Of a stretch of DNA of 54,447 nucleotides, positions 2,716 through 18,762 are shown piece after piece (position 1 is the first letter of the stretch; every line of letters begins with the position of its first letter). The position numbers and the translations under genes were made by a program. The stretch spans positions 1 through 54,447 of the IMG/VR virus record IMGVR_UViG_3300037099_000532; one strand, 5' to 3'. The notes beneath the pieces are model-generated. The model saw nothing but the letters and a program-made list of their open reading frames with translations, was not told where the DNA came from and did no database searches. Source of the DNA: a virus (Duplodnaviria > Caudoviricetes).

Positions 2716-2966
2716 TGAAAACGATCGTTCTCACCCACAAAGCCGCCAAAGAGCTAGACGCCCTTCCGGCCGCCGCGCGCCATTCGATCACGGAAGCTCT
2801 CGCGGCCTACGCGATCGACGGCCGCGGCGACGTCAAGGCGTTGGCGGGCCGCAAAGGCTTCCGGCTGCGCGTCGGAGATTACCGGGTGATTTTCGACGAC
2901 GACGGCGCCACGATCCTAGCGATCTACATCGGGCGCCGGGGAACGACCACTTACGCGAGGAACTGA
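2715..2966 (+). CDS. RelE/ParE-superfamily (HigB-like) toxin
   Basis: 83 aa; GDVKAL-G..FRLRVGDYRVIF..IGRR RelE signature. Confidence 0.9.
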   Translation: MKTIVLTHKAAKELDALPAAARHSITEALAAYAIDGRGDVKALAGRKGFRLRVGDYRVIFDDDGATILAIYIGRRGTTTYARN

Positions 2967-2967
2967 A

Positions 2968-3354: not shown

Positions 3355-3370
3355 GACAACCCGGGCCGGT

Positions 3371-4045
3371 TCATCGCCCCAGCTTCGCCAGGTCGTCGGC
3401 GTAGCGTTGAATCGAGTGGTTGCCGGGGATCGCCTGACCGATCTTGGCGATGTCCAAGAAATCGGCGAGCGCCTTGGGCGTGCCCGGAACCGGCTCGCCG
3501 ATCTGCCGCGGACGGGTCGGGTGGTTGAACGGCGGCCGCATCGGCAGCTCGGGCACGATGTCGCCCGCCCGCGCGTCCTCGACCGCCTCGACGCCCTGGC
3601 GCAGCAGATGACCGAGCCACGGATTAAGGAAGCCGACGCGCGGCGCGCCGAGCGCGACGACGCGAAAACGCCGGCCCGGCTGGCGCGCGGCGAAGATCCC
3701 ACCGAGCACAAGAGCCTCGGCGCCGCCGAGCGAATGGCCGACGAATGAGAGCAGCCGCGGATCGCCGGCGATTGTCGGCGCGATCTTGGCGTACAGCGCT
3801 TCGCCGGCGCGGCCGAAACCGCCGTGGACCGGCCCGACGCCGGCGATCCAGCACGGCGCGGCGCTGATGTCGCGCAACCAATCGAGCGGATCGAGGGGAT
3901 TGGTGCCGGGCATGACGACGACGAGCTCGTCGTCGCGCGGAAGCAGATCGTATTCGCAATCGAGCGCGACGCGCCCCGACCATGGGCCGCGATAGGAGAG
4001 CCCGGCGAGGCGCGCGAGTTCGGCGTGCGAGAGAAGGGCCGACAC
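3371..4045 (-). CDS. Class-3 lipase / alpha-beta hydrolase
   Basis: PGT..DWLRD, VHGGF, nucleophile GHSLG, LGAPRVG, GDIVP, C-terminal HSIQRY (Ser-Asp-His triad). Confidence 0.88.
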   Translation of the reverse strand: MSALLSHAELARLAGLSYRGPWSGRVALDCEYDLLPRDDELVVVMPGTNPLDPLDWLRDISAAPCWIAGVGPVHGGFGRAGEALYAKIAPTIAGDPRLLSFVGHSLGGAEALVLGGIFAARQPGRRFRVVALGAPRVGFLNPWLGHLLRQGVEAVEDARAGDIVPELPMRPPFNHPTRPRQIGEPVPGTPKALADFLDIAKIGQAIPGNHSIQRYADDLAKLGR

Positions 4046-4051
4046 GAGGCG

Positions 4052-4693
4052 TCAGGCCTGCGGCGCGGCGCTGATGCTGTTCGGCGCGGCCACGGTCGTT
4101 CCAGACGGCGCCGAAACGCGCGTCATTTGGATCTGGGCGCGGCCGAGCGCGGCGAGCGTTTCGTCGGTGACCCGCTGTTTCGTCCATCCGGCCTTGGCGA
4201 TCAGATCGGGAATCACCGCGGCCGCCCGCTTGGCGATACCGTCAACGATCGGATGGTCGTCGGTGAAGGTTGCCGTTGCGAGATTGCCTTCGGCCTTGCT
4301 CACTGCCGCTTCGGCGAGCGTATCGAGGTAGCCCGCGGCGGCGTCTTGGTCGGCTTGACTGATCTTGACGTGCAGGAACTTCGCCGCCAGCAGGGCGACG
4401 TCGCCGAGCGCCCATTTGATGACGCCGGCGAGCACGCCAAGCGCAAGCGGCGTCAACACCGGCAACAAGGGAGCGAGGGTGAACGTCGTCGTCGTCGCGG
4501 AGGCGTCGGCGGCGAAGGCGAGGCTTGCGCCGGCGACGAGCAGCCAGAACATGGCGAAGAGATACGCCGTGACGCGCCGCCAGCGAGCCCAAGGAACGGG
4601 CCGTGAGAACAACAGAACGGCAATCGTCGCCGCCACAACGGCGAACGGCAGGCGCAAAGCGAGCGCCGCCCACGGGTGCAGGATGAGGAACAT
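4052..4693 (-). CDS. Multi-TM membrane protein, holin candidate
   Basis: Three hydrophobic segments then a helical soluble domain, within the lysis module. Confidence 0.6.
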   Translation of the reverse strand: MFLILHPWAALALRLPFAVVAATIAVLLFSRPVPWARWRRVTAYLFAMFWLLVAGASLAFAADASATTTTFTLAPLLPVLTPLALGVLAGVIKWALGDVALLAAKFLHVKISQADQDAAAGYLDTLAEAAVSKAEGNLATATFTDDHPIVDGIAKRAAAVIPDLIAKAGWTKQRVTDETLAALGRAQIQMTRVSAPSGTTVAAPNSISAAPQA

Positions 4694-4814
4694 AGTTGGT
4701 CTCTCGATTGAAACGCCGGAATCCGCCGGCGCGCGGGAATCTTGATGACGGGGATTGGATCGTCAGCAACCCTTCGGCGGTCGCTCGCGGGTCTCGCGTC
4801 CGGGCCTTTTCAGA

Positions 4815-5117
4815 TCACGCCAACGAAGAGTCGGTCTCAGGCGTCTCGCCGCTCTTGTGAATCGGCTCCGGACGCTCTTCGCCGCGCAACAGCCAATAGT
4901 TGCCGTGCGCCTGCTGGATCGACCCGTGCATGATTGAGGTCGCCCGCAACAGCTTTTGGCCGTAGTTATCGCGCTGGCCTTCGACGTCGTTGACGTACAC
5001 CACGTTCACGCATTGCGGACCCCAGACCTCGGTGATCAGCGCGTCGTAGCGCCTGCCCCGCGGATCGTAGAAATCCACCGCCATGCCGCGGTGCTGTTCG
5101 CGCGTTACTTCCGTCAT
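4815..5117 (-). CDS. Hypothetical phage protein
   Basis: GAGGAG SD, globular composition, in operon. Confidence 0.65.
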   Translation of the reverse strand: MTEVTREQHRGMAVDFYDPRGRRYDALITEVWGPQCVNVVYVNDVEGQRDNYGQKLLRATSIMHGSIQQAHGNYWLLRGEERPEPIHKSGETPETDSSLA

Positions 5118-5186
5118 CGTTTGCTCCTCGTCTCCGGACTATCCGGAGAGGCGCGGGGCGACGCGCTCGCCCCAATTCGATTTGCG

Positions 5187-6044
5187 CTAAGCGCTCGCCG
5201 CGTCGAGCGCCGCCCAAGTCAGCGGGCCTAGACCGTCAGTCGCGAGGCCGTGCGCCTTCTGAAAGGCTACGATCGCCTGTTTCGTCTTGTTGCCGGCCCA
5301 TCCGTCGATTTTGAGCGGCTGCCCGTCGTCCGACGTTGCACCGGCTCTATTGAGCCGCCATTGCAGATCGGCGGCGGAATGCGCGGGATAGGTCGAGACG
5401 GTCGGATGCGGCGCTGGCGCTTCGTTGGGGTCATGCCGCGCCGCGCCACCGTGACTTGGCTCCGGCGGGACGTCGGGCGGCAGCTCAGCCTGATGCGGCC
5501 CCGGCGCGCCATGCAGCGCGAAGGGCGGCAGCGGCCCGTCGCCGAAGGCGTCGACGGCCTCTTTCGTGTAGGCGACGAGCTTCAGCCAGGTCTCGGAGCC
5601 GATTGCGCTGCAGTCGACATGGCCGCCGCCGGCGGCGCCGAGATCGTGGTGCTGGCACAGGCCCCGCCCCTGCCCGCCCTTGGCCCACACCGGCGGAATG
5701 CCGTAGGCGCGGCAGCACCAGCCGGCGACCAGCGCTGCGGAGCGCATCGTCTCTTCGCTCATCCCCTGGGCGGTGAAGCCTTCGATCTCGAGCGAGATCC
5801 CGCGGCCGTTGAACTCGCACTCGGCCCAGGCCTTGGCGCTGAGCGGAACGAGCTGCGTCAGCTCGCCGCCGTCCTTGCGCAGGCAGAGATGGGCGGAGGC
5901 CTTGGTGGCGGCGCGGCACAGCCAGTTGACCGAGCCGAGATAGCCGCCCTCCATCATATGGAAGACGAACAGGCCATGGGCGATCGGCGTCGGCGTGTAG
6001 CTCGGCGACGGAACCTGTTTGACGGGCGGCATGGTGACAGTCAT
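5187..6044 (-). CDS. Endolysin: N-acetylmuramoyl-L-alanine amidase (Amidase_2) + C-terminal PG-binding domain
   Basis: FVFHMMEG, ASAH, AWA..N..ISLEIEG, QHHD; PG_binding_1-like IDGWAGNKT..FQKAHGL-DGLGPLTW. Confidence 0.9.
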   Translation of the reverse strand: MTVTMPPVKQVPSPSYTPTPIAHGLFVFHMMEGGYLGSVNWLCRAATKASAHLCLRKDGGELTQLVPLSAKAWAECEFNGRGISLEIEGFTAQGMSEETMRSAALVAGWCCRAYGIPPVWAKGGQGRGLCQHHDLGAAGGGHVDCSAIGSETWLKLVAYTKEAVDAFGDGPLPPFALHGAPGPHQAELPPDVPPEPSHGGAARHDPNEAPAPHPTVSTYPAHSAADLQWRLNRAGATSDDGQPLKIDGWAGNKTKQAIVAFQKAHGLATDGLGPLTWAALDAASA

Positions 6045-6163
6045 CGAAAACTCCTCATCAGTTGGAAGGCGGCCCACGCCGCAACGACGACGCCCGAGAG
6101 AATTGCGATCGCCTTGAGCGCGGCCGTCAGCGCGAGAACGACAATCAGAACCGCGATGGTCAT
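6041..6163 (-). CDS. 40-aa hydrophobic peptide, micro-holin candidate (not in ORF track)
   Basis: MTIAVLIVVLALTAALKAIAILSGVVVAAWAAFQLMRSFR; GAGG SD; ATGA overlap with the amidase start. Confidence 0.65.
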   Translation of the reverse strand: MTIAVLIVVLALTAALKAIAILSGVVVAAWAAFQLMRSFR

Positions 6164-6170
6164 CGCCGCC

Positions 6171-6692
6171 TCACGGCCTCACAAAGACGAGACCGCGCCG
6201 CCCGACCGTCGCCTCGGCGACGCGACGATTCCAATTGCCCGACAGCAACCGGATCGACCCGTCCGGCTCGACGCCGGCGACGAAACCGACGTGATGCGGC
6301 GCGACAGCGAGATCGCCGACGCGCGGCGCGTCGACGCGCGTTCCGTAGCGGTAGGCGCTCGCCGCCAAGCGGTTCGGCAGCGGCGGCAGGCCAACGCGAC
6401 GCAGCACGAACGATACGAAGTCGGCGCACCACGGCCCGACAGTCCCGGTCGGATTGGCCTGCCCGAGCCAGCGCGTCGCCTCGTCGACCACGCGCGACGC
6501 GCCGCCCCACGCCTGCCCGGCCGCAATCGCCGGCGCGCCGTCCTGCCATCCCGGCGCATAGACGTCCTGCGGCGTGAGGCCGCCGCGCCCACCGGCCTCG
6601 GCAGCGCCGGATAGGCAAAGACACGTCACGACGGCGAACACCGCCAGCGAGCCCCACAGCGGCTTTATCGGCAGTCGGGGAAATCCGATCAT
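6171..6692 (-). CDS. Exported CHAP/NlpC-P60-fold peptidoglycan hydrolase (TIGR02594-like)
   Basis: Signal peptide ending AEA; PWCADFV, GDLAV..HVGFV, LSGN motifs; AGGAG SD. Confidence 0.85.
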   Translation of the reverse strand: MIGFPRLPIKPLWGSLAVFAVVTCLCLSGAAEAGGRGGLTPQDVYAPGWQDGAPAIAAGQAWGGASRVVDEATRWLGQANPTGTVGPWCADFVSFVLRRVGLPPLPNRLAASAYRYGTRVDAPRVGDLAVAPHHVGFVAGVEPDGSIRLLSGNWNRRVAEATVGRRGLVFVRP

Positions 6693-6830
6693 GGTCGTCT
6701 CCTGGAGAAGCATTCAGGCGGCGGCCGAGAACGCCGGGCGCGCCAACGCGCCCCGCGGAGGAAGCGGGTCGGGCATGACGATCCTTTCGATCTGGACTAA
6801 GATCAGGCGTTCAAACCCGCGAGGACGCTC

Positions 6831-6971
6831 ATGGGCCGTCTCAGGAGTTTCATCACCGCGCTGCGGAAGGCGCTCACGCGGCGGCGGCGCGAACGCGTCC
6901 CGCTTCTGCCGTGGTCGGAAGACGCCGAAACGCGCGCGGTGCAGCGCGACGAGATCGACGGCTGGTTCTGA
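6831..6971 (+). CDS. Possible 46-aa antisense-oriented small protein
   Basis: GAGGA SD, MGRLRSFITALRKALTRRRR...DEIDGWF; fills the gap between tail and lysis genes. Confidence 0.4.
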   Translation: MGRLRSFITALRKALTRRRRERVPLLPWSEDAETRAVQRDEIDGWF

Positions 6972-6972
6972 G

Positions 6973-7398
6973 TCAGTCGATCACGATCGCCGCGGCGGCG
7001 GCGATCAGCGCCGTGACTTGCGCGGCGGTCAGCGGCGACGGGACGGCTGCGGCGAGCGCCAGCAGTGCTTTCGAGTCGGCGGGGATTTGGTTGGCCCCGA
7101 CGGCGAAGAACGCCGTCAGAGCGGCATTGTTCTGCGCCTGCACGGCGGCCTGCACTTGCGCCCAGGTCGGCGGCGCGAAGCCGAGCGCGGCGGGCGGATC
7201 GTTGCACACGACCTCGAGCTGCCACAGCAGCGCGGTCGGGACCGGCGCGGAGGCAAGCGGCGCCGGACTCGGCGTATTCCCGACGGCAAGCCAAGCCTGT
7301 ATATCAGCGCTGCTGACGAGACGGCTCTCCATCGACCCGTCGGCGTTCACGCGCACGACGGCAGTGTTCGAGTCGTCCGTATATTGCCAGCCGCTCAT
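6973..7398 (-). CDS. Tail fibre assembly/accessory protein
   Basis: ATGA-coupled to the fibre-like gene; WLAVGNTP-P motif typical of fibre chaperone-like proteins. Confidence 0.6.
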   Translation of the reverse strand: MSGWQYTDDSNTAVVRVNADGSMESRLVSSADIQAWLAVGNTPSPAPLASAPVPTALLWQLEVVCNDPPAALGFAPPTWAQVQAAVQAQNNAALTAFFAVGANQIPADSKALLALAAAVPSPLTAAQVTALIAAAAAIVID

Positions 7399-8543
7399 AG
7401 TTCGGCTCCGGTGAAATAGAATGACGTCGGCGTCATATCCAATTGGAAGAGGTATCCCGCCGTGAAGCTCGCGGTGGCGGTTGCGACGTAGATTCTCGCC
7501 GCGGACACGCTCACGCTGCCATTGATCGACAGTGCGCTCAAGGCGACGGGCGCCACGATGCTATCCTCGGTCGCCCAGATATTGGCGACCGTTCCGACAA
7601 TAACGCCGGTGACGGGAACCCGAGTTGGGATCGAAAAAAATACCGTAAAGTAACCGTGCGACGAGTCCCCAAACTCTCCAAGGCCGGGAAGCCGCCCGCT
7701 CGTAAACGCCGGCAAGTATCGTTGGGACTGCGCCAGCTCGACGCCGATCGGCCGCAGCTCCGGCGGCGGAACGGCTGCGGCGATCGCGTTGTTCGTCATG
7801 CCGGGCGTGGGGCGGAAGTCCGGCGCGGCGACCATGCATTTGACGGACGACGAGGCGAAAGCGGCGTTGCAATCGATGTCCACCTCGACGCCGTTGGCCG
7901 CATTGGCGTTCGGCGTCCAGGTGTAGGTCTCCAGGCACCACGTCGCGGTCGCGCAGGCCGTCAAGCTCGTCGCGCCCAGATCCGCGGTCGCGCCGGAATT
8001 GTTGGCGCAGTCGAACTTGTTGGTCCCACCATTCCATGTGTCCGCCGCCGTCGCGACGCACTCGACGATCTTCGGCGTGACCGTCGATCCGGTGTTCTGG
8101 TAGTACCAGAATTGCAGCGTCGAAACGACGCCCGCCACCGGCGACGCCATGAAGCTTTCAACGCGCTGGCCGATCTTGATGTCCGTGTTCGACGCGACGC
8201 CGTCGCACTCCAGCGCGTATTTGACGCCGACGCCGCTCGGGACGGTCGTCGATTGCTTGCAGGTCGCCGCGGCGCCGAAGCTGTAGCCAATCCAGCCATC
8301 GAGCGTGTAGCTCGGCGCACTGGCGATCGTCGTCGTCGTCGCCAGTCCCGACGCTCCGCGCTGCGCGACTTCCATCTTCGTGTTGCGGAAGACGTTGAGG
8401 AAGCCGCCGGGCATGTGCTGCGAAAGGAAGGACAGCGAAAGCGGCGACGGAGGCGGATTGGAAACGCCGTCGGCCGCCGCGCCGACGGGCGCCGCAGCGA
8501 GCGAGATGGCGATGAGAACGCCGGCGAGGATCTTGCGGAACAT
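7395..8543 (-). CDS. Tail fibre/receptor-binding-like protein with predicted Sec signal peptide
   Basis: N..RN..M..AQRG, YTLDGW, GQRVES, ELAQSQRY, terminal AEL fibre-domain pattern; N-terminal MFRKILAGVLIAISLAAAPVGAAA. Confidence 0.7.
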   Translation of the reverse strand: MFRKILAGVLIAISLAAAPVGAAADGVSNPPPSPLSLSFLSQHMPGGFLNVFRNTKMEVAQRGASGLATTTTIASAPSYTLDGWIGYSFGAAATCKQSTTVPSGVGVKYALECDGVASNTDIKIGQRVESFMASPVAGVVSTLQFWYYQNTGSTVTPKIVECVATAADTWNGGTNKFDCANNSGATADLGATSLTACATATWCLETYTWTPNANAANGVEVDIDCNAAFASSSVKCMVAAPDFRPTPGMTNNAIAAAVPPPELRPIGVELAQSQRYLPAFTSGRLPGLGEFGDSSHGYFTVFFSIPTRVPVTGVIVGTVANIWATEDSIVAPVALSALSINGSVSVSAARIYVATATASFTAGYLFQLDMTPTSFYFTGAEL

Positions 8544-8558
8544 TGTTGCCCCTCGCGG

Positions 8559-9185
8559 TCAGGCGTTGACGCCGACGATACGGATCGCCGCCGGCGCGAC
8601 GATCGCGGTCGGCGGCGCGGCGGCGTTGATCTCGGCCACCGTCGCCGCGATCGCCGTCTCGAAGGCGGTCAACGCCGCCGCCAGCGCGGCGGGCGTCGTC
8701 GCGGCGTCCACCGCATCGTCGAGCGTCGCCAGCGCGGCCGAGAGATCGAGGTCCGCGCCCTGCATCGCCACGACCAGCGTCGCGAATGCGCTCGCCGGCA
8801 GACCGTAGACGGCCGCCAGCGCAGCGAACTTGGCCGCCAGCGGCGCGATCGTCGGCGCTGCGCCGCCATTGCCGTTGACCATCGAGGCCGCGTTTTGGAA
8901 CGCCGACTGATGCGTGGCGTCGGGATAGATCTGCGCGACGACGCTCGCGCAAGCGCCGCTCGCCGCGGCGCTCAGCGCCGTCTTGAGTTGCGCCAGCGGC
9001 GGCGCCGGCGGCGGCCCGAAGGCGCCGTTGGCGTAGCTCATGCCGACTGCGACGGCTTGATCGGTCGGCGCCGAGACCAGCGTCGCCGCGACGGCGGCGG
9101 AGAAGATCGCCGTGAGCTTTGCACCGTCCGGCAATGCAATCATTTCGGCGACGACGCCGTCGGCGATGCGCGCGTAATTGGTCAT
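8559..9185 (-). CDS. Tail fibre assembly chaperone-like protein
   Basis: YARIADGVVAE N-terminus, follows the fibre gene. Confidence 0.6.
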   Translation of the reverse strand: MTNYARIADGVVAEMIALPDGAKLTAIFSAAVAATLVSAPTDQAVAVGMSYANGAFGPPPAPPLAQLKTALSAAASGACASVVAQIYPDATHQSAFQNAASMVNGNGGAAPTIAPLAAKFAALAAVYGLPASAFATLVVAMQGADLDLSAALATLDDAVDAATTPAALAAALTAFETAIAATVAEINAAAPPTAIVAPAAIRIVGVNA

Positions 9186-9186
9186 C

Positions 9187-10335
9187 TCACCACTCCAAGA
9201 GAACGGCGCCGTCAGCGCCCGAGCCGCCCGCCCCGGCCACGAGGTAGCAAGAGCCGCCGCCGGAGCCCGGCGCGACGGCGTTCTGCAGCGCTGGCGACGA
9301 AGGGCCGTAAGCCGCCCGGCCGCCGCCGCCGAGCAGCGACGCGCCGCCGAGGCCGCTGAAGATGTTCACTCCGGCCATGCAGTCCGAGCCCATGCCGCCC
9401 GACAGGTTGAGCGCTCCGCCGGAGCCGACGCCCGGGCCCCCGCCGCCGCCGTTGGCGCCGGTGTTGTTGCCGGAGAAGCCGCCGGTGGCCGACAGGCCGA
9501 GAGCCGACGAAACGCCCCCGTTGCCGCCGCTGTTGTTGCCTGAGGCGCCGCCAAGTCCGCCCTTGCCGACGATGATTGCGTAGGCCTGGCCAGGGATGAC
9601 CGCGACCCGGCCGATCGCCGCGCCGCCGGCACCGCCGCATCCGCCGGCCGTTCCCGACGCGCAACCGGCGCCGCCGCCGCCGGCGCCGACCACCGTCGCC
9701 TTGACGCTGTTGACCCCGGCAGGACAGGTCCACGTATAGGTTCCGTTGGCGTCCCAGAACGCGAGCGCCTTAGGCGCAGCGAGGACCGAGCCCAACCGCA
9801 GTTTCTGATTCGGATCGACGACCAGCTTGAACATGCCGTCGCCGGCCATGTCGCCGACCTGAATCGCCGAGCCGTCGGAGCGCAGGATCGTCGTCGCGCC
9901 GAGCCCGCTGATATTGGCGGTCGGCGTCGTCGTCGCGTTCGGGTTTGCGCCCTTGACGACCCAGATCGTTGCGCCGGGCTTGTACTCGAGCCACGCCGGC
10001 GTCGGATTGAGCACGAGCGCGTCGGCCGAGCCGGCGTCGATCGCGAAGCTGAACTGACCGCGCTGGATCATCTGCTGCACCCCGCGCAGCAGCATGCCGT
10101 CGGTGTGATCCTCGCTGACCACCGGCGCGCCGGCGATCAGATTGCCGTTGCCGCGCAGCAGCGCGCGCAGGTTGGCGATGATTTCGTTGAGTTCTTCGGC
10201 GGTGATCGGCGTGCCGCCGGCGCCGTCGACGCAATCCTGCAGGAACGTGTCGGCCGCGCCGAAGGTGCGCGTGTCGGAGGGCCGCGTCGTCACCGAATTG
10301 GCGACGCTCGAGCTCGGTCCAAACGGGTCGGACAT
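9187..10335 (-). CDS. Tail fibre protein with Gly-rich C-terminal domain
   Basis: GTPITAEELNEI baseplate anchor; TWTCPAGV..VVGAGGGG..GADGAVLLEW Gly-rich domain. Confidence 0.85.
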   Translation of the reverse strand: MSDPFGPSSSVANSVTTRPSDTRTFGAADTFLQDCVDGAGGTPITAEELNEIIANLRALLRGNGNLIAGAPVVSEDHTDGMLLRGVQQMIQRGQFSFAIDAGSADALVLNPTPAWLEYKPGATIWVVKGANPNATTTPTANISGLGATTILRSDGSAIQVGDMAGDGMFKLVVDPNQKLRLGSVLAAPKALAFWDANGTYTWTCPAGVNSVKATVVGAGGGGAGCASGTAGGCGGAGGAAIGRVAVIPGQAYAIIVGKGGLGGASGNNSGGNGGVSSALGLSATGGFSGNNTGANGGGGGPGVGSGGALNLSGGMGSDCMAGVNIFSGLGGASLLGGGGRAAYGPSSPALQNAVAPGSGGGSCYLVAGAGGSGADGAVLLEW

Positions 10336-10346
10336 TCAGTTCTCCT

Positions 10347-11003
10347 TCACGGCGTCGTCTGATAAACGATCACGCAATGCGCGCGCACGATGCGCGCCAA
10401 CAAGCATTGCAGCGGCGAAATGTCGGGCGCGCATGCGAGCGGCATGCCGGCCTGCATCAGCCCGGCGAGCGGCGGCGTCTGATAGGCCGCGCCGTAGGCC
10501 GGGCTGCCCGACAGCGAGACGACGATCAGCAGCGTCGCCGCCGGCGGCGCGGCACCCGCGACGGCGAGGCCGGCGAGCGCTGTTCCGGCGAGCGCGCCGC
10601 AAGCCGAGCCGTCGCGCGAGCAAGCAATCGCCCAGCCCGCCCGCGCCGCTACCGCCGCGTAATAGGCGCACTGGTTGCCGCCGAGCGCCGCGACCTTCGC
10701 GCACAGATCCGGGTAAGGGTCGCAGCCGTCGGGCAGTCCGTATTCCGCCATCCACAGATCGCGTGTCTCGTCGCAGCTGGCGCAGAAGAATTCCTTCTTC
10801 AGCGCGCACAGCCGTTGGTTGACCCACGCCCAAACGGCGGCGAGCGCGTTGAAGAACTTCCAGCGCGGTGAGTCCGCTTGCAGATCGCCGCCTTCGTGCG
10901 TGCGCCACGCCCGGCCGCGCGGCAGCAGGGCGATCAATTGCGGCACGATCTGCTCTTGCGTCGGGCAGATGTCGAAGGCGTCGGAGCCGTTGGCGCAGGA
11001 CAT
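10347..11003 (-). CDS. Baseplate wedge protein, Mu gp48/YmfQ (DUF2313)-like
   Basis: LIALLPRGRAW, W..EYGLPD.C, C...IVRAH. Confidence 0.85.
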   Translation of the reverse strand: MSCANGSDAFDICPTQEQIVPQLIALLPRGRAWRTHEGGDLQADSPRWKFFNALAAVWAWVNQRLCALKKEFFCASCDETRDLWMAEYGLPDGCDPYPDLCAKVAALGGNQCAYYAAVAARAGWAIACSRDGSACGALAGTALAGLAVAGAAPPAATLLIVVSLSGSPAYGAAYQTPPLAGLMQAGMPLACAPDISPLQCLLARIVRAHCVIVYQTTP

Positions 11004-11019
11004 AGGTCTCACCGTGGAA

Positions 11020-11070
11020 AGCGAGTGGCGAATGGAGAAAGGCGATTCCACTCGCCACTCGCTATTCGCC
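11020..11070. repeat. Heptamer (GGCGAAT/AGCGAGT) inverted-repeat element 1
   Basis: GCGAGTGGCGAATGG...CCACTCGCCACTCGCTATTCGCC. Confidence 0.7.
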
Positions 11071-11097
11071 CCTCCCCGGCGCGCAGCGCCGTTCGCG

Positions 11098-12249
11098 TCA
11101 CGCGAACGTCAGCGCCCCCAGCGTCGGCACGCCGCCGGTCGCGATCGCCACGTCAGCGGTCGGCGCGATTATCACCGCGCGCTGGTCGCCGGCGGAATTG
11201 GCGACCGCCTGCGCCGCCCACAGCGCGGCGAACGACGTCGGCACGGCGAGGAACGGCATGGCGGTCAGCATGCCCGCCGTCGCCGCATCGGCGCCGGCGA
11301 CGCGGCCGAGGCGCTGGAACGTATCGAGCAGCTCGGCCCGAACGGCGTTCTGCTGCGCCGTCGTGTTCGGCGTCAGCCCTTGCACTGTGACGGCGATCGG
11401 CTGCGCCGTCGGCGCGACGACCGTCACCTGGGCGTCGCCCGGCGCATATTGCGCGATCAGATTGGCGACTGTCGCGATATGGCCGGCGTCGGCGATCCCG
11501 CCGGAAAACAGCGCGTCGAACATCGGAAAGACGCGGATCGTTCCCGCGCCGTTATAGAGCCGCTCGACAAAGGTGCGCGTGACGCCGGGAACCATGCCGG
11601 CCCACGAAACGTAGTCGGCCGGCGCGCCGCCTTGGAACGGGTTGCGCTTGCGAAACAGGATGCGGCCGCGATAGGTCGACAGGTCGGACGTGTAGGGCGC
11701 GCCGTCTGCTTCGACGTCGAGGCCGTTGGTCAAGCCGTTGGCGTCGACCGCCGCCGTCGCGGCCGCCGCGCCGGAGCCCGACGCGCCGGAGACGATGGTC
11801 AGCGCCGTTCCGGCCTGCGTGTTGCCCGCCGCCGCCGCGTTCACGGCGACCACGGCGACATTGAACGTCCCGGCCGCGCCGATCGACCCGCCGGTCGAGG
11901 CGGTGAACGCCGTCCCGTCGAGCCGCTGCAATTGCGCTCCGGCGGCGATCGCCATCGCGTCGGGCGCGGTGACCACGACGTTGCCGCTCGCCGCGCTGGC
12001 GAGCTTGCGCGCCAAACCGATCTCCGCGCCGTGGTCGTCGAGATCGGACCCGACCGCCGTCAGGGCGAATTTGGCTCGCTGGACGTCGTCCATGCGGTTG
12101 AACAGCTCCCATGCCGAACCGCCGATGACCTTGGCGCTCGGGCCGATGTTGTTCGGCCACAGCCAGGCGTCGGTGCCTGGCAGATAGGCGCGGAACGCCT
12201 GCCGCGTCTTCTCGACGCACGCGGCGAGCGACGGGATCGAAAAGGTCAT
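11098..12249 (-). CDS. Baseplate J / Mu gp47 family
   Basis: GLARKLASAASG, AAGNT, DVEAD..YRGRIL, GGAPADYVSWA. Confidence 0.92.
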   Translation of the reverse strand: MTFSIPSLAACVEKTRQAFRAYLPGTDAWLWPNNIGPSAKVIGGSAWELFNRMDDVQRAKFALTAVGSDLDDHGAEIGLARKLASAASGNVVVTAPDAMAIAAGAQLQRLDGTAFTASTGGSIGAAGTFNVAVVAVNAAAAGNTQAGTALTIVSGASGSGAAAATAAVDANGLTNGLDVEADGAPYTSDLSTYRGRILFRKRNPFQGGAPADYVSWAGMVPGVTRTFVERLYNGAGTIRVFPMFDALFSGGIADAGHIATVANLIAQYAPGDAQVTVVAPTAQPIAVTVQGLTPNTTAQQNAVRAELLDTFQRLGRVAGADAATAGMLTAMPFLAVPTSFAALWAAQAVANSAGDQRAVIIAPTADVAIATGGVPTLGALTFA

Positions 12250-12265
12250 CGCGGCGCTCCGCCGC

Positions 12266-13249
12266 TCAACGGGTGTAGGTGCAGAGAAAGCGATGCCCGG
12301 TCGTCGCTGCGTTGACCGAAACGGCCGCCTGGATCACCGTGCCCGCCAGGGTCAGCGTCGCGGAGCCGCCCGGCGCGAGATCGAAATAGTCGCCGGCGCC
12401 GGTGGTCGTCGCCGCGCCGGTCACGGAGCCGAACAGATCCTCGGTCGCCGCCACCGGGTTCTCGATCAGCAGACTCTTGCGCGAAGAATCCGCCGCCGCG
12501 GCGGTCTGCGCCGCGCCGCCGGTCGTGATCGTTCCGCCGCAGTCGGTCGGCGCGACCGCCAGCGGCGCAATCGTGCCGCCGGTCGCCTGCATCGGCGAAC
12601 CCAGCGCCGTCAGGATCGAGGTCAATCGCTGCGCCAGCCGCTGCATCTGCGCGTTGAGCGCGCACGAGGCGGTGTCGGTGGCGCAGGCGGCCGCGCCAGG
12701 CGCGCCGAGGTCGGTCTCGAGCTGCGACTCGGTGACTGCGAGGTTCGAAGCGATCAGCGACGTCAGCCGCTGGGCGATGCGCTGCAGCAGCGCGTTGACG
12801 TTGCACGAGCCGGAATCGGTCGCGCACGCGGTCGAGCCGGGCGCGCCGAAATCGAGGTAGAGACCCGACAGCCAGCCGCGAATGCCGGCCGCGCCGGCCG
12901 GCGGCGTCGCGCCGGTCGCGTCGGTCCCGTCCTGCGCCGCCCCTTGCGGCAGCGGCGGCAGGTCGGTCCCCGAGAACGGCAGACCGGTCGCCGGGTCGAC
13001 GGCGACGAAGCCGCACACCAGCGACCCGTCCGCCACCGCCCAGCAGTGCTCTTTCTGCGCGACGTGATTGCCGTCGAGGATGTTGAGGTCCTGCACGCTC
13101 GGCGTTTGCGCCGCCGCCGGCGCGACCGCCCACACCGTCATTGCGAGGAGCGCAGCGACGAAGCAATCCAGGCCGCGCCCCAATCCTTGGATGGCTTCGC
13201 TTCGCTCGCAATGACGGTTGTGGCCGAACAACATGTGTGGCTCCATCAA
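12266..13249 (-). CDS. Predicted secreted, Cys-paired repeat protein inside the baseplate operon
   Basis: Signal peptide ending APAAA/QT; two GAPG..ACATD..SC..NA..QR.AQRLTS repeats; beta-rich C-terminal domain. Confidence 0.7.
   Translation of the reverse strand: MMEPHMLFGHNRHCERSEAIQGLGRGLDCFVAALLAMTVWAVAPAAAQTPSVQDLNILDGNHVAQKEHCWAVADGSLVCGFVAVDPATGLPFSGTDLPPLPQGAAQDGTDATGATPPAGAAGIRGWLSGLYLDFGAPGSTACATDSGSCNVNALLQRIAQRLTSLIASNLAVTESQLETDLGAPGAAACATDTASCALNAQMQRLAQRLTSILTALGSPMQATGGTIAPLAVAPTDCGGTITTGGAAQTAAAADSSRKSLLIENPVAATEDLFGSVTGAATTTGAGDYFDLAPGGSATLTLAGTVIQAAVSVNAATTGHRFLCTYTR
13134..13218. repeat. CGTC-type/RPE-like palindromic repeat inserted in-frame
   Basis: ACCGTCATTGCGAG...CTCGCAATGACGGT terminal inverted repeats; encodes HCERSEAIQ..LDCFVAALLAMT. 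Confidence 0.85.
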
Positions 13250-13881
13250 GGCAGCAGCGGCGCGAGGCCGCTATTGACGGGATTGCTGAAATCGAGGCCG
13301 GGCGCGTCGTAGCGCAGCGACCCCGCCGGCGACGTCGGCATGGGGCTGAATTCCCTCGCCCAGATATTGTTGAAGCGGCGGTCGTAGATCTTGCTTCCGT
13401 TCCTGCCGTAGAGTTGCACGGCGAGATCGAGCCGGCTCGGCGGGTTGGCGTAGGCTTGCACGGCGACGCGGGCGCAGGCGCCCTGCCTCGCCAGCCCAGC
13501 GAGCGCGTCCTGGGCGAAGGTGACCGCCCAGCGCGGCGTCGCGACGGGATCGAGGATCGAGCGTTCGAGCAGCCACAGCAGCGAGCCGAGCGGGTCTTCG
13601 CCGAGATCGGTCCGCACGTCGACCGCGTCGCCCCACCAGCCGCCCATGTCGCCGTCGGGCGGCGTCAGCGGGTGGCCGTCCGGGCAGCGGCGATTGGTGA
13701 ACAACGAGTCGATCACCGCCGTGTCGAGCGGCCGCATCGCCTGCAAGCCGCCGGCGTTGTGCGGCTCGCTCGGCTGCGCGACCGCCCAATCGGCGAACCC
13801 GCCCTCGGAATTCCATACGGAATCCCACAACAGCTCCGGCTGCGCCGCGCAGCCTTCGTTGATGCGGACGTTGATGTCCAT
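13246..13881 (-). CDS. Baseplate protein, Mu gp46 family
   Basis: LDTAVIDSLFT, GGWWGD, LGSLLWLLER. Confidence 0.9.
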   Translation of the reverse strand: MDINVRINEGCAAQPELLWDSVWNSEGGFADWAVAQPSEPHNAGGLQAMRPLDTAVIDSLFTNRRCPDGHPLTPPDGDMGGWWGDAVDVRTDLGEDPLGSLLWLLERSILDPVATPRWAVTFAQDALAGLARQGACARVAVQAYANPPSRLDLAVQLYGRNGSKIYDRRFNNIWAREFSPMPTSPAGSLRYDAPGLDFSNPVNSGLAPLLP

Positions 13882-14690
13882 TACGGCGTCAAAGCCTCGA
13901 AACGGGTCGGCATGAACGAAGCGTGCGGCGCGGCGTTGCGGGCGATCAGGTCGGCGGCGCGGGTCGGATCGCCGTACAGCCGATAGGCCCACCACAGGCT
14001 CGGCAACGAGATCGCCGCCGACACCGTCATCACCGGCTTGGCGTTGATGATCGCCTGACTGAGATAGGCGACGCAGGCGTCGCGCGTCTTGATCAGCCCG
14101 GCCGCCCACGGCGCGTCGACCGCGCCCTGACATTGGTCGATCTCGCGCTCGAACCGTTCGACGCAATCGGCCCGCGCCGTGATCGCGCTTGGCCGGTCGG
14201 CATAGGTCGTCAGCACCAAGGCTTGCGCGTAGGCGCCGAGCAGCACGCCGCGCGACAATCGCGCGACGATCTGCAGGTTCTCGGCGTCGACCAGCCGATT
14301 GGCCGTCTGGGTCGGCGCCGCCGCGGCGTCGGCCGTCGCGTCGGCCTCGGCGGCGAACACGGCGACCGCGCTCGCCGGCGCCATCGCCTCCGCAATTCCG
14401 TTGGCGATGGCGAACAGTCCAGTCGCCACGCTCGGGTCGATCCCGCTCGTCTCGCTGACCAGCGTCGGGATGACGTTGTAGAGCGCGACCAGCGCGTTGC
14501 TCAGCCCGGTCACCGCCGCGGTCGGCGCCGACACGGTCGCCGACGACGCCGGCCCGGCGGCGACGGCGGTCTTGAACGCCGCCGCTTTGGCCCCGTCGAG
14601 CGTGTTGGCGGCGGCGATCGCCTCGAGCGTCGCGACGAGATCCTGCAACCCCGTCACGACGTCGGCGAGGACCCAATTGGGGTAGGCCAT
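13881..14690 (-). CDS. Mu gp43 (DNA circulation protein) C-terminal-domain-like protein
   Basis: Helical body then SLPSLWWAYRLYGDPTRAADLIARN..PHASFMP. Confidence 0.75.
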   Translation of the reverse strand: MAYPNWVLADVVTGLQDLVATLEAIAAANTLDGAKAAAFKTAVAAGPASSATVSAPTAAVTGLSNALVALYNVIPTLVSETSGIDPSVATGLFAIANGIAEAMAPASAVAVFAAEADATADAAAAPTQTANRLVDAENLQIVARLSRGVLLGAYAQALVLTTYADRPSAITARADCVERFEREIDQCQGAVDAPWAAGLIKTRDACVAYLSQAIINAKPVMTVSAAISLPSLWWAYRLYGDPTRAADLIARNAAPHASFMPTRFEALTP

Positions 14691-14697
14691 GCCGCTC

Positions 14698-15201
14698 CTA
14701 AGGATTCGGGACGCCGGTGTTGGCGCCGCCCGGCGTCACGCCGCCGTGAACATGCGTCGCGCCGATGTCGAGCGTCTGATGGGTCACCGTCCCGCCGACG
14801 ATCGCCACGCCGGCGCCAGTGATCGTCAGGCTGACGCCGCCGACGACCAGCTCGATCGTGCTGGCGTGAACGACGCGCAGCTTCGCCTGCACCACGCTCA
14901 CCGCGTCGCCATAGGCGTCGTAGAGCACCGTGCCGCCCGCCGGCGTGTTGGTCGGCCGCTTGCCCGGATGTTCGAACCCGAGCGCATGCGCCCGGTCGAA
15001 GCCGCCGCCGAGCGCCAGGATCAACCCCTCGGCGCCGGCCGGCGGCACGCTCGACAGCCCGAAATGCTGGCTGCGCACCGCCTCGCCGATCGGCTGACCG
15101 GCGAGGCCGGTCAGCTTCATCAGTTGTTGCGGCCCGCTGTCGTCGACGCTCTGCAGCGCGGCGCGCAGCAGTTGCGAGCGGATGTTCGGGTCGTAGCTCA
15201 C
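14698..15201 (-). CDS. Baseplate spike, Mu gp45 family
   Basis: VDDSG..Q, QHFGLSSVPPAG, GGTVLYD, terminal THVHGGV; GTG start overlapping the gp44 stop. Confidence 0.88.
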   Translation of the reverse strand: MSYDPNIRSQLLRAALQSVDDSGPQQLMKLTGLAGQPIGEAVRSQHFGLSSVPPAGAEGLILALGGGFDRAHALGFEHPGKRPTNTPAGGTVLYDAYGDAVSVVQAKLRVVHASTIELVVGGVSLTITGAGVAIVGGTVTHQTLDIGATHVHGGVTPGGANTGVPNP

Positions 15202-16280
15202 TGCGCGTCCGAGTCGTCGAAGCCCCAGTCGGCGCCCGACTTGTTGACCCCGCCGCCCCGCCCGCCGTGGGCGCGCGGATCGACGAGCTCCATGACGCAA
15301 TACGTGCCTTCCGTCGCCGCGCCGCCCTGCTCGTAGGAGACATGCTCGATCAGCATGTATTGGCAGAGATAGAGCGACGGCGAAACGGTGTAGGCCTTGT
15401 TGCCGGGAGTCCACAGCATGCCCTTGGCGTCCCGCCAGCCGCGCACATGCACGTTGGCGCGCACGCCTTCGCCTTGCTCCTTGTCGCGCCGCCGCTTCGC
15501 GCGGCGCAGAAGGCGCGCCCGGTCGGTGTGACGGTCATGGTGATGATGCAGCGGCCGATAGCGCGTCACGTTGGCGTTGTTGGCGACGGCGTGAATGGCG
15601 ATCGCCTGCGCCCCAGAGCCCTTGTAGGCTTGGCCGTGTACGTTGACGACTGAGTGCTGAGCGGAAACGTCGAATGCGCCCCCCGCCTTCCAAATTCCGC
15701 CAAGCCCCGCCATACCTTCGACGAGCGCGCTCGCCTGCGCCTGGGCGCTTTCGCCGGCGCGGGTAATCTTGATCGACCCGTCCGCCTGGCCGGCCATCGT
15801 CGCGCCCTCTTCCTCGCACAGCGGAGCCAGCGCTTCCCACAACGTCTGGCCAGGGTTCGGTCGCCAGCGGTCGAAACCGTCAGGCGTGAAATCGGCGGCG
15901 AAGCCGACGCCGAAGGCGTCCTGATCCTTCGCCACCGCCAGCACGTCGGCGTTGACATAGTCCGGCTTGGTATGGTCGACGCTGCAATCGACGGCGTCCT
16001 GGCCTTTGCTGCGCCCCGTGACGATGCAGACGTAGCTCTTGTCCTCGAATTTCGGCTCCCGCCTGTCAATATAACCGGTGAAGACGAGGTCGCCGCTGGC
16101 AGTCGCCGAGATCGGCGAGCCGAGCGGAAAGATCGTCGGCGCCAGCGGCGCGCCGAGCACGTCGTCGAAGGTGATCGACAACGTCCGCGCCGCATCCTTG
16201 ACGCCGGCGCCGATCGCGATCTTCTTGAACGTCGCAACGTCGCCGCCAGCGGCGTGGACGACGACCTGCTCCAGCGCCAT
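15198..16280 (-). CDS. Baseplate hub, Mu gp44/P family
   Basis: VFTGYID, GRSKGQDAVDCS, GWRDAKGMLWTPG. Confidence 0.88.
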   Translation of the reverse strand: MALEQVVVHAAGGDVATFKKIAIGAGVKDAARTLSITFDDVLGAPLAPTIFPLGSPISATASGDLVFTGYIDRREPKFEDKSYVCIVTGRSKGQDAVDCSVDHTKPDYVNADVLAVAKDQDAFGVGFAADFTPDGFDRWRPNPGQTLWEALAPLCEEEGATMAGQADGSIKITRAGESAQAQASALVEGMAGLGGIWKAGGAFDVSAQHSVVNVHGQAYKGSGAQAIAIHAVANNANVTRYRPLHHHHDRHTDRARLLRRAKRRRDKEQGEGVRANVHVRGWRDAKGMLWTPGNKAYTVSPSLYLCQYMLIEHVSYEQGGAATEGTYCVMELVDPRAHGGRGGGVNKSGADWGFDDSDAQ

Positions 16281-16282
16281 CG

Positions 16283-16756
16283 CTAGAGCCCGATCTGCGC
16301 CGTCAGGCTCGCCGCCGCAGCGGCGAGCGCCTCGACGGCGTCGAAGGCGAGTTGGGCGAGGAATTCGGCCGGCTGCAGCGGCGAGGAGACGCCTTCGCGG
16401 ATGAACTTCGCCTCGAAGCCGAAGCGGCCCATCTTGTCGCGCAGGCGATCGCGCTTGAGTCTTTCGCAGCGGGCCGTAATCGGCCCCTGCGCCGGCATGA
16501 TCAGGACGCCGGCGTCCGACCCGTCGCCGCAAGCCGCCTCGAGCGCCGCGATTTCGTCATCGGCGGAGTCGCCGATCAGATAGCCGGTGATCTCGATCGT
16601 GCGCGCCTTGCGACCCAGATCCTCATTGAACGGCTCGTCCGCGCCGGCAAACTCGCTCGACGAGACGCGCCGACCCGTGTCGGCATGGTCGCGCTCGACC
16701 CAGAAGGGGACGCCCTTGTAGGACGCCGGCCACAGCGTCGCCATCCAATCGCGCAT
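16283..16756 (-). CDS. DNA circularization protein N-terminal domain (Mu gp43-N), stand-alone
   Basis: LWPASYKGVPFWV..TGRR..EDLGR..ITGYLIG; ends at 157 aa. Confidence 0.88.
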   Translation of the reverse strand: MRDWMATLWPASYKGVPFWVERDHADTGRRVSSSEFAGADEPFNEDLGRKARTIEITGYLIGDSADDEIAALEAACGDGSDAGVLIMPAQGPITARCERLKRDRLRDKMGRFGFEAKFIREGVSSPLQPAEFLAQLAFDAVEALAAAAASLTAQIGL

Positions 16757-18762
16757 CAGTGAGCCCTGTTGTAGCGGCGCGGCGCGGCGTCAGTGTCCAT
16801 CCGGCCGACGTGCACCGCCAACGCGCCCTCGGCGCTCGCCTGAACGGTGGCGATCGCTTGCAGCAGCTTCTCGGTCGCGTCGACCTGGACCTTGACGTTG
16901 ACGTCGGCCTTCGAGTTCGGATCGAGCTGCACCTGCACCTTGCCGAACACCGCCTCTTCGGCCGCCCGCGTCGCCGCGGCGATATGGGCGTCGATCGAAC
17001 TGACGGTGTAGGCCGCGTCGGCGGCGTCCTGGGGACTCCTCACCGCAGCGCTGGCGGCGCGATGGCGGTCGAGATCGTATTGATAGTCCTCCTCGCCGCG
17101 CAGTTCGACCGAGCCGCGCCAGCGCGCGGTGCCCTGCGTCGCCTCGGCGCGCACGCGCTCGAGTTCGGCGCGCGCGGCGTCGCGGTCGGCGTAGGCGCGC
17201 TGCACCGCCGGGTCGTCGCCCGTTCCAAAAGCGATGTACCCGGTGTCGAGGCTGATTCTCCTGGTCAATTCATCGGCGCGCGACGTCCAGCCGATGACCT
17301 TGTTCTTGTAGTCTTCGTCGACCGTCTTGCGCACCGCGACGTCGGCGGCGCGGCCGAAGTCCGGCGTGTCGACGCCCCAAGCCAACCGGTTGAGATGGCT
17401 ATTGGCTCGGTCGGCCGCCAAGGAGGCGTCGCGTTGCTTTTGCGCTTGCGACTCGCCCAGCCACGTGTTCAAGCGCGCAATCGACTGGGCGGCGTCGGTC
17501 ATGGCGCTGGCAATTTGCAGCGCTTGGCCGAGCGTCCCGGTCAGCGCCTCGATCGACGCTTTCAGCCCTTGCCACGCCAGGCTCGGGTCTTCGCGCATCG
17601 CCCGGTCGGCGGCCGCCAGGCCCGGCGCGTTGCCGAGCAACGCCAGATCCTTGTCGATGCGCGACTGCTGCGTCGCCAGCAGCGAGACCATCTGGCCCGC
17701 CATCTGGTTTTGAAAGAGGGTCGAGACCTCTTTCATCACGTCGGCGCGGTCTTTGATCCCGAGCTTGTCGAGCGCCGGCACGAGATAGTCGCGCACCCAG
17801 GCGTTGGGATCTTCCTGCGCCTCGCGCCAGCCCTTGACGCTGTGGCCGGCGAGAATCTGCTTGTTGCCGCTCCTCAGGCTCTTGACGTCGCCCGCCCCGA
17901 GCAGCCCGAGGCGATAGAATTCGTCGACCGCCTTAGTCTTCAGCACGCCGCCGACGATCGCGGCGTTGAAGGCGCTGACCGCGCGGCCATAGGACGAGCC
18001 GCCGAGTTCCTGCGCCAGCGTCGGCGCGGTGCCGAGGATGAACTTCTCCGACAAGCCAGACGTCGCCTGGCGGCCGTACTTGAACATCTCGTAATACTGG
18101 TAGGGTTTCAGCGTGTCGCCGAAGACGTTGATGCCCTTGGCGATGCCTTCCATGTACTCGCGGAACTGCTTCGGGTTCTGCGTCACCCCTTTGATTTCGA
18201 GGCCCTTGATGAGCTGGTCGAAGTCCTCGCTGACGTCCTCGCCCGGTCGCGCCAGCTGCGCCAGCACGCGCAGCTTGGTCAGCGGCTCGGCGATCTCGGC
18301 GGCTTCCTTGTAATTGCCGACGATCGAGCGCGCGTTGCGCAGCATATGCAGCATTTCGGTCTGATCGACCGCGGGAAATTCTTGCGTCAGCTTGGCGGCG
18401 GCGGCCGTCGCCTCGGCGATCTCTTCCGGACGCATGCCGGCGACGGCCATGCGAACCATTTCGTGCTGCCGCGCGCCGACCGCCTTGACCGCCGCGTGCA
18501 CGGCGATCGCGCCGCCGCCGATCAAAGCGTAGTTCGCCGCCATGCTCGCGGCGGAGGCGACCGCGCCGAGGCCGAAACCGGCGTTGCGCGCCGCCTGCGC
18601 CGCCGACGAAGCGCTGGCGACCGCGCCGCCCGTCGCGCCGACGGCGCGCGAAACCCCGGCGACCGCCTTGCCCAAACGATTGACGCGCGCCTCGGCGGAG
18701 GCGAACGCCGGGCCCGACTCGTCGACGCCTTTGATGACAAGTCGCGATTCCAGAACGGTCAT
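16756..18762 (-). CDS. Tail tape measure protein
   Basis: 668 aa, Ala-rich helical, located after the tail chaperone. Confidence 0.85.
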   Translation of the reverse strand: MTVLESRLVIKGVDESGPAFASAEARVNRLGKAVAGVSRAVGATGGAVASASSAAQAARNAGFGLGAVASAASMAANYALIGGGAIAVHAAVKAVGARQHEMVRMAVAGMRPEEIAEATAAAAKLTQEFPAVDQTEMLHMLRNARSIVGNYKEAAEIAEPLTKLRVLAQLARPGEDVSEDFDQLIKGLEIKGVTQNPKQFREYMEGIAKGINVFGDTLKPYQYYEMFKYGRQATSGLSEKFILGTAPTLAQELGGSSYGRAVSAFNAAIVGGVLKTKAVDEFYRLGLLGAGDVKSLRSGNKQILAGHSVKGWREAQEDPNAWVRDYLVPALDKLGIKDRADVMKEVSTLFQNQMAGQMVSLLATQQSRIDKDLALLGNAPGLAAADRAMREDPSLAWQGLKASIEALTGTLGQALQIASAMTDAAQSIARLNTWLGESQAQKQRDASLAADRANSHLNRLAWGVDTPDFGRAADVAVRKTVDEDYKNKVIGWTSRADELTRRISLDTGYIAFGTGDDPAVQRAYADRDAARAELERVRAEATQGTARWRGSVELRGEEDYQYDLDRHRAASAAVRSPQDAADAAYTVSSIDAHIAAATRAAEEAVFGKVQVQLDPNSKADVNVKVQVDATEKLLQAIATVQASAEGALAVHVGRMDTDAAPRRYNRAH

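Follow-up and report, generated by a model that had tools for sequence, protein, structure and literature searches.

Two fibre-related proteins with export leaders and paired cysteines in the Mu-like tail module of a provirus: candidate host-recognition parts that may mature in the periplasm

Two minus-strand genes in the tail module of the provirus IMGVR_UViG_3300037099_000532 (the window, which is the whole IMG/VR provirus record of 54,447 bases, rated complete, with a G+C content of 63-71%) appear to encode diverged tail-fibre relatives that leave the cytoplasm. The first, at 7395-8543, encodes a leader-bearing protein of 382 residues that comprises only a fibre tip (P0001), and the second, at 12266-13234, encodes a leader-bearing fibre-module protein of 322 residues (P0017). 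To judge from their sequences, both proteins are very probably exported to the periplasm by Sec and oxidised there by the Dsb system to form disulfides. The best explanation overall, which we hold tentatively, is that they are accessory host-recognition parts that are exported and dock on the particle at lysis. Comparison of sequences and families shows the leaders, the paired cysteines linked with them, the fibre ancestry, the late-operon position and the insertion of the second gene. A preliminary description of this DNA had singled out both genes as exported, disulfide-bonded proteins; as a whole, the observation was real and could be confirmed in part, with the start and leader of the second gene corrected, and its interpretation is supported as far as periplasmic export and disulfide formation are concerned by evidence from across the families.

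The leader of P0001 (residues 1-24; 8472-8543) is of the classical Sec type that had been claimed for it, with FRK as its positive n-region, then 17 hydrophobic residues without charge, and AAA in front of D25. According to our own heuristic, which was used for all leader calls in place of SignalP, it has the n-region, the run of 10-20 hydrophobic residues and the small residues at -3 and -1 of a type I Sec signal peptide. It is followed by a 20-residue Pro/Ser linker, and a strong ribosome site (GAGGGG) lies 7 nucleotides before the ATG. The Tat (twin-arginine translocation) route was dropped for P0001 because the leader has RK rather than RR and because folding before export would be unfit for disulfides. 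Among the 56 open reading frames (ORFs) of the window called by codon bias, a leader-like N-terminus occurs in only four, namely 7395-8543, 12266-13234, a CHAP peptidase and a lipoprotein; two leaders among the fibre genes are more than chance would give. No leader was found on the ordinary fibre at 9187-10335, as previously noticed. All eight cysteines of P0001 (residues 95, 113, 162, 179, 197, 203, 225 and 236) lie in its mature part of 358 residues, and P0017 has ten, two in the leader and eight in a mature part of 280 residues; the earlier count of eight mature cysteines each, with several close pairs, was thus correct. Neither protein has a lipobox.

P0001 is related to tail fibres through its tip. 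Residues 49-364 match the tail-fibre family phrog_4492 at profile positions 792-1084 of 1096 (E 1e-14), and the tip alignment (residues 45-382) spans the FRN, QRIES and PELRP motifs and the C-terminal AEL, an ending common to all 7 sequences of the alignment (A1). A family profile built from P0001 and six homologues (7 sequences) found 14262 representatives at E<=1e-3, 800 of them at E<=1e-30; the tip domain forms the C-terminal end of proteins that range in length from 269 to 1454 residues, and in nearly all of the 150 representatives listed the match runs to the last residue or close to it. The tandem beta-sandwich tip domain of P0001 (7398-8411) is modelled with confidence (predicted local distance difference test, pLDDT, 88.9; predicted template modelling score, pTM, 0.83). 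A Foldseek search with this model gave 115 PDB matches at E<=1e-3, led by a tandem carbohydrate-binding module (CBM) of family CBM22 (4xup, 7e-7) and followed by CBM16 and CBM4-2, and the model also resembles parts of phage tailspike and baseplate proteins. As modelled, the tip is a tandem CBM-like beta-sandwich, for which sugar binding is only putative. When P0001 and P0017 were compared by tblastn with 50,697 GenBank phage records, no match was obtained at E<=1e-5.

Within the P0001 family, leaders and cysteines go together. A leader was called in 40 of the 153 best representatives, a few more being missed by the heuristic, and the median number of cysteines in the last 330 residues is 8 with a leader versus 3 without. 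In an alignment of 117 sequences of at most 620 residues (26 with a leader, 91 without), most of the cysteine columns of P0001 are nearly confined to the leader-bearing members: Cys95 is present in 15/26 leader-bearing versus 4/91 leaderless sequences, Cys113 in 15/26 versus 3/91, Cys162 in 19/26 versus 2/91, Cys203 in 21/26 versus 3/91, Cys225 in 20/26 versus 4/91 and Cys236 in 21/26 versus 3/91. The exceptions are Cys197, which is common in both groups alike, and Cys179, which lies in an indel region and is rare (4/26 versus 0/91). Cys95 and Cys113 are found together in 18 of the 19 sequences with either, and Cys225 and Cys236 in 22 of 26. The serine of ELAQSQRY occupies a column for which the preliminary description had given a cysteine in cytoplasmic relatives, and the alignment bears this out, with Cys in 72/91 leaderless and 13/26 leader-bearing relatives.

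A similar picture emerges from the family of the second protein (the P0002 family), for which a search with residues 48-327 found 47 proteins. Of 12 relatives fetched, ten have short classical leaders ending in A-x-A; the remaining two are P0025, which lacks both leader and cysteines, and P0028, which reads the same DNA in a shifted frame. In the set of 46 proteins used for parity (P0028 dropped, the leader of P0017 set by hand), the mature cysteine count is even in 25/25 leader-bearing members, compared with 12 even and 9 odd counts among leaderless ones. The median number of cysteines per 100 residues is 1.85 with a leader versus 0.33 without (Mann-Whitney p 6e-5). Errors of the heuristic put at least three Cys-rich sequences, P0056 with its evident leader and two N-terminal fragments, in the wrong group. 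The cysteines of the PTDC and LCTY motifs are jointly absent from P0024 and P0032, which have another pair, and the window copy, P0017, has gained a pair in its N-domain, so that, on sequence comparison, the cysteine pairs of this family appear to be gained and lost together. Behind the leader, P0017 consists of a conserved beta-rich N-domain (12935-13108), a GIRGWLS module with two Cys-loop/helix repeats (12590-12934) and a C-terminal domain (12269-12589) matched by phrog_22789 (E 3e-6). The N-domain is 41-48% identical across all 7 close relatives, whereas identity in the C-domain is 61-68% in four of them, 47% in one and 20-26% in two, in which it is swapped. At 14 other loci, the AAQDGTD...GIRGWLS module is also found in proteins of the fibre region that have no leader and almost no cysteines. 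A scan of genome_contigs with the single P0002 sequence found no relative, and a scan of the same set with alignment A3 found only 3 loci, with the GIRGWLS motif alone in common.

The leader of the second gene requires separate treatment. The start had been placed at TTG 13249, which is probably 5 codons too far upstream; ATG 13234 is the most likely start because it aligns with the start of the homologue at locus L002 and has a GGAG ribosome site 7 nucleotides upstream, and the gene caller picked the same codon. Nor is the leader that begins there (13109-13234) the classical Sec signal it had been taken for. It is plausibly a chimeric export signal, as its codons 7-33 are supplied in frame by an 81-nucleotide palindromic repeat of the repetitive extragenic palindromic (REP) type at 13136-13216 (minus strand), a point that the preliminary description had missed. 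The repeat has the palindromic arms and the many dispersed copies of a REP-type element, and its position here is not extragenic. Copies of a 23-mer from its first arm are present in at least 120 stretches belonging to other genomes, with many of the matches listed falling in Bradyrhizobium, Rhodopseudomonas, Xanthobacteraceae and sphingomonads; the likeness of the window to 128 copies begins and ends at 13136-13216, and the homologues at L002 and L003 lack the element. In the metatranscriptomes, contigs from two runs break off at 13220, as expected from other copies of the repeat.

By our heuristic, P0017 has a Sec signal in this chimeric form only, and its export may therefore be weaker than that of its relatives. 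One might even suppose that only the first gene works as an exported protein and that the second, crippled by the repeat, is decaying, its product being poorly exported or made from an internal start as a cytoplasmic protein. The normal n-region and part of the h-region have given way to the element; the leader without it would have approximately 15 residues and no positive charge, and the inserted repeat forms a stable RNA hairpin (minimum free energy -59.7 kcal/mol, z -2.5) that begins 19 nucleotides past the start codon. However, the insert comprises exactly 27 codons, keeps the frame and contains no stop, and the hydrophobic, uncharged stretch encoded by its second arm joins the old h-region to give approximately 19 residues before AAA-Q, at the cost of a 22-residue n-region of mixed charge. 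Moreover, the ORF is intact, with a G+C content at third codon positions (GC3) of 0.88, and the eight mature cysteines are kept, including the pair gained in this copy. The cluster of the 12266 gene is found on 5 contigs, and at least half of its words are held by 14 runs, so the same allele is present in several assemblies. A crippled second gene is thus improbable, and it would in any case not exclude the other readings considered here.

Both genes look like genes of the late operon because they are tightly spaced and have no promoter or terminator of their own. Each lies 12-15 nucleotides from the gene upstream on the minus strand of a Mu-like module, so the embedding in the tail operon noted at the outset is upheld. 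No sigma-70-like promoter was found in 6000-14800 (0 sites with the E. coli-type consensus, the only one searched), and terminator-like sites are at chance level (8 versus 4.8 +/- 2.3), none of them flanking either gene. RNA contigs from four metatranscriptomes are scattered over 1-20000 at low depth and show neither expression of the two genes in the prophage state nor its absence. A second feature overlooked at first is that the second gene interrupts the usual gene order. Going by that order, 12266-13234 is an insertion between the homologues of Mu gp46 and gp47, and the slot gp46 / leader gene / gp47 is kept in the window, L002 and L003.

The gene that follows P0001 may supply its partner. 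P0004 (6973-7398, minus strand) is a leaderless protein of 141 residues whose start overlaps the stop of 7395-8543 by 4 nucleotides and which has no family match in Pfam or PHROG searches. In L153/L154, a 49%-identical homologue of P0004 directly follows a leaderless fibre of 670 residues with the same tip and is itself followed by a leader-bearing peptidase, in the order seen in the window. The complex of P0004 with P0001, proposed earlier for prediction, was modelled with an ipSAE (interaction prediction score from aligned errors) of 0.71 (runs 0.71, 0.71 and 0.74), against 0.00 for the best control; the mark of 0.71 is reached by 58/80 solved complexes and by 2/110 mismatched pairs. The runs have at least 82% of contacts in common, and the pLDDT of the partner is 85. 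The predicted interface joins residues 7-35 of P0004 with residues 312-379 of P0001, and P0004 is thus predicted to bind the exported tip.

Genomic settings provide further context. Among the 42 IMG/VR loci analysed for relatives of P0001 (L180 and L181 were left out as weak), a leader-bearing version is present in five (L138, L139, L140, L141 and L143), which are five of the six best matches; neither these loci nor L182, described below, share other genes with the window. In L138 and L143, baseplate J, a structural protein and a leaderless fibre are followed by a leader-bearing protein of 1057-1079 residues; L141 has several leader-bearing proteins; and in L139, two leader-bearing proteins alternate with leaderless proteins of approximately 200 residues. 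In the latter locus (6579-13013), the leaderless proteins have a shared N-terminal motif and each is followed by a leader-bearing fibre-like protein (533 and 482 residues), which would fit an arrangement of sockets and exported fibres. The T7-like locus L182 has, in order, a tail tubular protein, an internal virion protein of 1120 residues, a leader-bearing protein of 812 residues with 15 cysteines in the fibre slot, a protein of 345 residues and an endolysin; the 345-residue protein (11109-12146) has 11 cysteines and an SRRK-type leader that resembles a twin-arginine signal. Behind the leaders of P0134, P0137, P0142, P0145, P0169 and the protein at 13213-14283 of L141 stands a motif consisting of a cysteine and PNTLTNGT.ADA..V, which resembles an N-terminal fibre domain that has been retained there. 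A Pfam search with 10 leader-bearing relatives and neighbours matched nothing, and therefore no anchor domain can be named among them. The alignment of the leader clade (A7) found only 5 loci in viral_contigs and, with two patterns, no relative in 185,579 representative genomes.

Taken together, these observations suggest the following course of events. Both genes would be expressed with the late tail proteins, without a promoter of their own, and Sec would move the two fibre-derived proteins into the periplasm of a diderm alphaproteobacterial host, where their cysteines would be oxidised to disulfides. Lysis would then mix the compartments, and only at that point could the exported accessory host-recognition parts meet the particle built in the cytoplasm. 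The protein of 12266-13234 would dock through its conserved N-domain, and the tip-only P0001 would be held through the leaderless P0004, which is predicted to add its N-terminal hairpin to the sheet of the last domain of the tip. The preliminary description had offered two fates, to join virions at lysis or to act as secreted decoys or adhesins. That both proteins join the particle at lysis is our first choice for their fate, to be regarded as a working assumption rather than as a likelihood; it is favoured because a conserved N-domain is combined with a swappable C-domain, because relatives occupy fibre slots and because the predicted partner is leaderless.

Several findings weigh against this reading, some of them concerning export and others docking. 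The co-variation of leader and cysteines, proposed earlier as a check, is present in both families, but in the P0001 family it is largely confined to one lineage: in a tree built with all cysteines masked, 20/26 leader-bearing rows fall in a single clade of 22 (support 98), and therefore the link reflects a single old, conserved origin rather than repeated co-variation. The six leader-bearing members outside this clade are scattered and mostly Cys-poor (1, 1, 2, 4, 6 and 7 cysteines), and an independent-pairs test, with 4 pairs on supported branches, gave p = 1 (sign test). Raw cysteine parity in the family is 15 even versus 27 odd; once the ancestral cysteine of CQRY is set aside, a step taken post hoc, the domain count is even in 17/20 members of the leader clade. 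Furthermore, leaderless proteins of the same module are also Cys-rich (13 in the gp48-like protein, 6 in the ordinary fibre), and the second protein, in the version P0002, is poorly modelled (pLDDT 60, too weak for a fold search). It could accordingly be argued that the hydrophobic N-termini are not used for export at all and that the proteins assemble in the cytoplasm like normal fibres, with cysteines that are structural or become oxidised after release, which would agree with textbook tailed-phage assembly and with a predicted partner, P0004, that is cytoplasmic. Nevertheless, a full n-h-c architecture with A-x-A sites is maintained over dozens of diverged relatives, and the leaderless relatives in the P0002 family are nearly Cys-free while every leader-bearing one has an even count. 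Sec engages proteins bearing such leaders and would engage a cytoplasmic protein that carried one. Lack of export is thus very improbable.

The arguments against docking are of a different kind. P0001 lacks the anchor and shaft of its family, and only the leader and approximately 20 residues precede the tip domain, which bears out the earlier remark that it has no baseplate anchor. P0004, having no leader, could therefore meet P0001 only before export or after lysis. An ordinary fibre is already present, and both genes look like additions to the module; gp46 and gp47 are direct neighbours in L012 as well as in Microcystis phage vB_MweS-yong2, the closest cultured phage by gp47 (38.8% identity). 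Finally, we know of no tailed phage that adds parts after their export. Several of these points would suit the main rival explanation, according to which the proteins are exported but never join the particle and act as soluble or envelope lectins, derived from fibre tips, that mask the phage's own glycan receptor. The first-position G+C content of P0001, 0.55 versus 0.66-0.70 in its neighbours, would also suit an addition of this sort, and phages are known to encode exported receptor blockers next to their receptor-binding genes, as in T5 (Llp) and phi80 (Cor). On the other hand, masking would not explain why the genes have no promoter or terminator of their own and are tightly coupled in translation, a decoy would not need the conserved N-domain and swappable C-domains of the P0002 family, and P0004 would be left without a role. 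In addition, the periplasm gives no reach to glycans on the outer surface before lysis, and the relatives are whole fibres in fibre slots. We consider such masking unlikely, and the same holds for the purposes it might serve, whether to block superinfection of the lysogen or to keep progeny off debris at lysis.

If docking at lysis is nonetheless accepted as the preferred reading, it is possible, though doubtful, that it extends to a more general scheme in which the host-recognition gear is partly finished outside the cytoplasm, with Sec-exported, Dsb-oxidised modules snapping on at lysis with the help of leaderless sockets such as 6973-7398, and with a host repeat co-opted in an export signal. 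The literature search found no description of Sec-exported tailed-phage fibres (subscription journals were mostly outside its coverage). New here are the conserved gp46/gp47 slot, the 25/25 parity, a tip-only protein with a predicted leaderless partner and a repeat inside a leader. The textbook view places the whole assembly of tailed-phage particles in the reducing cytoplasm. A large and diverged set of fibre homologues with export signals and paired cysteines in the fibre slots of unrelated phages would mean that some host-recognition parts mature in the periplasm. Should they join the virion, assembly includes an unrecognised late step for which host Sec and Dsb are needed, with a bearing on host-range prediction, on the laboratory production of phages and fibres and on fibre stability in soil. 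Should they not, exported lectins have arisen from fibre tips and represent a novel class of accessory protein in phages. With its tip-only protein and predicted leaderless partner, the window offers a small test case.

The remainder of the window is that of a Mu-like phage, with a contractile-tail module and all late genes on the minus strand. The major capsid protein (23726-24799) and the sheath (20026-21561; phrog_165, E 1e-116) are followed downstream by the tape measure and then by homologues of Mu gp43, gp44 and gp45; the domains DNA_circ_N, GpP/gp44, Gp45 with Apex, GP46, Baseplate_J and gp48 occur in this order. A hub-related protein of 269 residues (13881-14690) precedes the Mu gp46-type baseplate protein (13246-13881; PF07409, E 5e-20; phrog_180), which lies directly upstream of 12266-13234, and baseplate J / Mu gp47 (11098-12249; PF04865, E 1.5e-42) lies beyond the latter. 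The leaderless gp48-like wedge protein (10347-11051) is weak in Pfam and matches phrog_203 (E 3e-13); its 13 cysteines in 234 residues are unusual for a cytoplasmic wedge protein and possibly form a metal or cluster site. The ordinary leaderless fibre P0003 (9187-10335) has a Gly-rich C-terminal domain (PF21722, E 4e-15; phrog_863/6202) and an N-terminal part of 150 residues conserved in L002, L003 and L012. Between it and 7395-8543 lies P0005 (8559-9185), an Ala-rich protein of 208 residues with no leader and no family match. The lysis region beyond 6973-7398 encodes a CHAP-domain peptidase (PF05257; 6171-6713) with a leader or signal-anchor-like N-terminus, beside an endolysin with Amidase_2 and PG_binding_1 (peptidoglycan-binding) domains (5187-6077); the peptidase looks like an exported second lysin, and L153 has a similar leader-bearing protein at the equivalent place. 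On the opposite strand, a ParE-type toxin gene is followed by a helix-turn-helix gene (2715-3354), with a Lipase_3 gene (3371-4045) and a lipoprotein gene (2173-2592) beside the pair; these are probably cargo at the prophage end.

The source is presumably a prophage of a soil bacterium. The repeat element, a homologue in Rhodopseudomonas and the peat metagenomes that contain this DNA suggest a Bradyrhizobium-type alphaproteobacterium as the host. DNA near-identical to 6900-13300 of the window is present in 14 runs, chiefly peat metagenomes, from several studies and years, and therefore the prophage or its host would seem to be widespread in peat.

How do these proteins compare with known systems? 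One close likeness is to leaderless fibres of the phrog_4492 type, such as the 670-residue fibre of L153 and the fibre annotated in Synechococcus phage S-N03, whose C-terminal receptor-binding tip aligns over its full length with P0001; in L153 the order of tip gene, P0004-like gene and leader-bearing peptidase is also that of the window. P0001 differs from them in having a leader instead of anchor and shaft, and four extra cysteine pairs, with loss of the CQRY cysteine. As for P0004, fibre assembly proteins of the type of P2 gpG and Mu gp50 remain on the fibre tip, and P0004 resembles them in being small, in lying just after the tip gene, in co-occurring with the tip elsewhere and in its predicted position on the last domain; unlike them, it matches no family, and its client has an export signal that P0004 lacks. 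The repeat in the second leader has the same two inverted arms around a variable loop, and the many dispersed copies, of alphaproteobacterial REP elements, including those of Bradyrhizobium, but the window copy is embedded in an open reading frame without disrupting it and contributes residues to a signal peptide.

Some phage proteins whose genes lie in or next to tail genes are exported, among them T5 Llp, Cor of phi80 and N15, and HK97 gp15. The likeness to these is limited to export and position, the 12266 gene too being an insertion that separates two genes found side by side in relatives. None of Llp, Cor and gp15 is related to fibres; they are small proteins of the lipoprotein or membrane type and are made early or by the prophage, whereas neither gene here has a lipobox or a promoter of its own and the mature proteins have 358 and 280 residues. 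By the usual marks of a moron, insertion between adjacent genes is seen for 12266-13234 only, and its own promoter and terminator for neither gene.

The mosaic adhesive trimer (MAT) fibres of Bdellovibrio bacteriovorus (PMC10769870) have a signal peptide and are phage-fibre-like, with a conserved beta-rich domain right after the leader and variable tips, some of them with disulfides. The P0002 family resembles them in this layout of leader, conserved beta-rich domain and variable tips. MAT genes, as described there, lie on the predator chromosome and their products on its own surface, whereas the genes considered here lie inside a phage tail operon.

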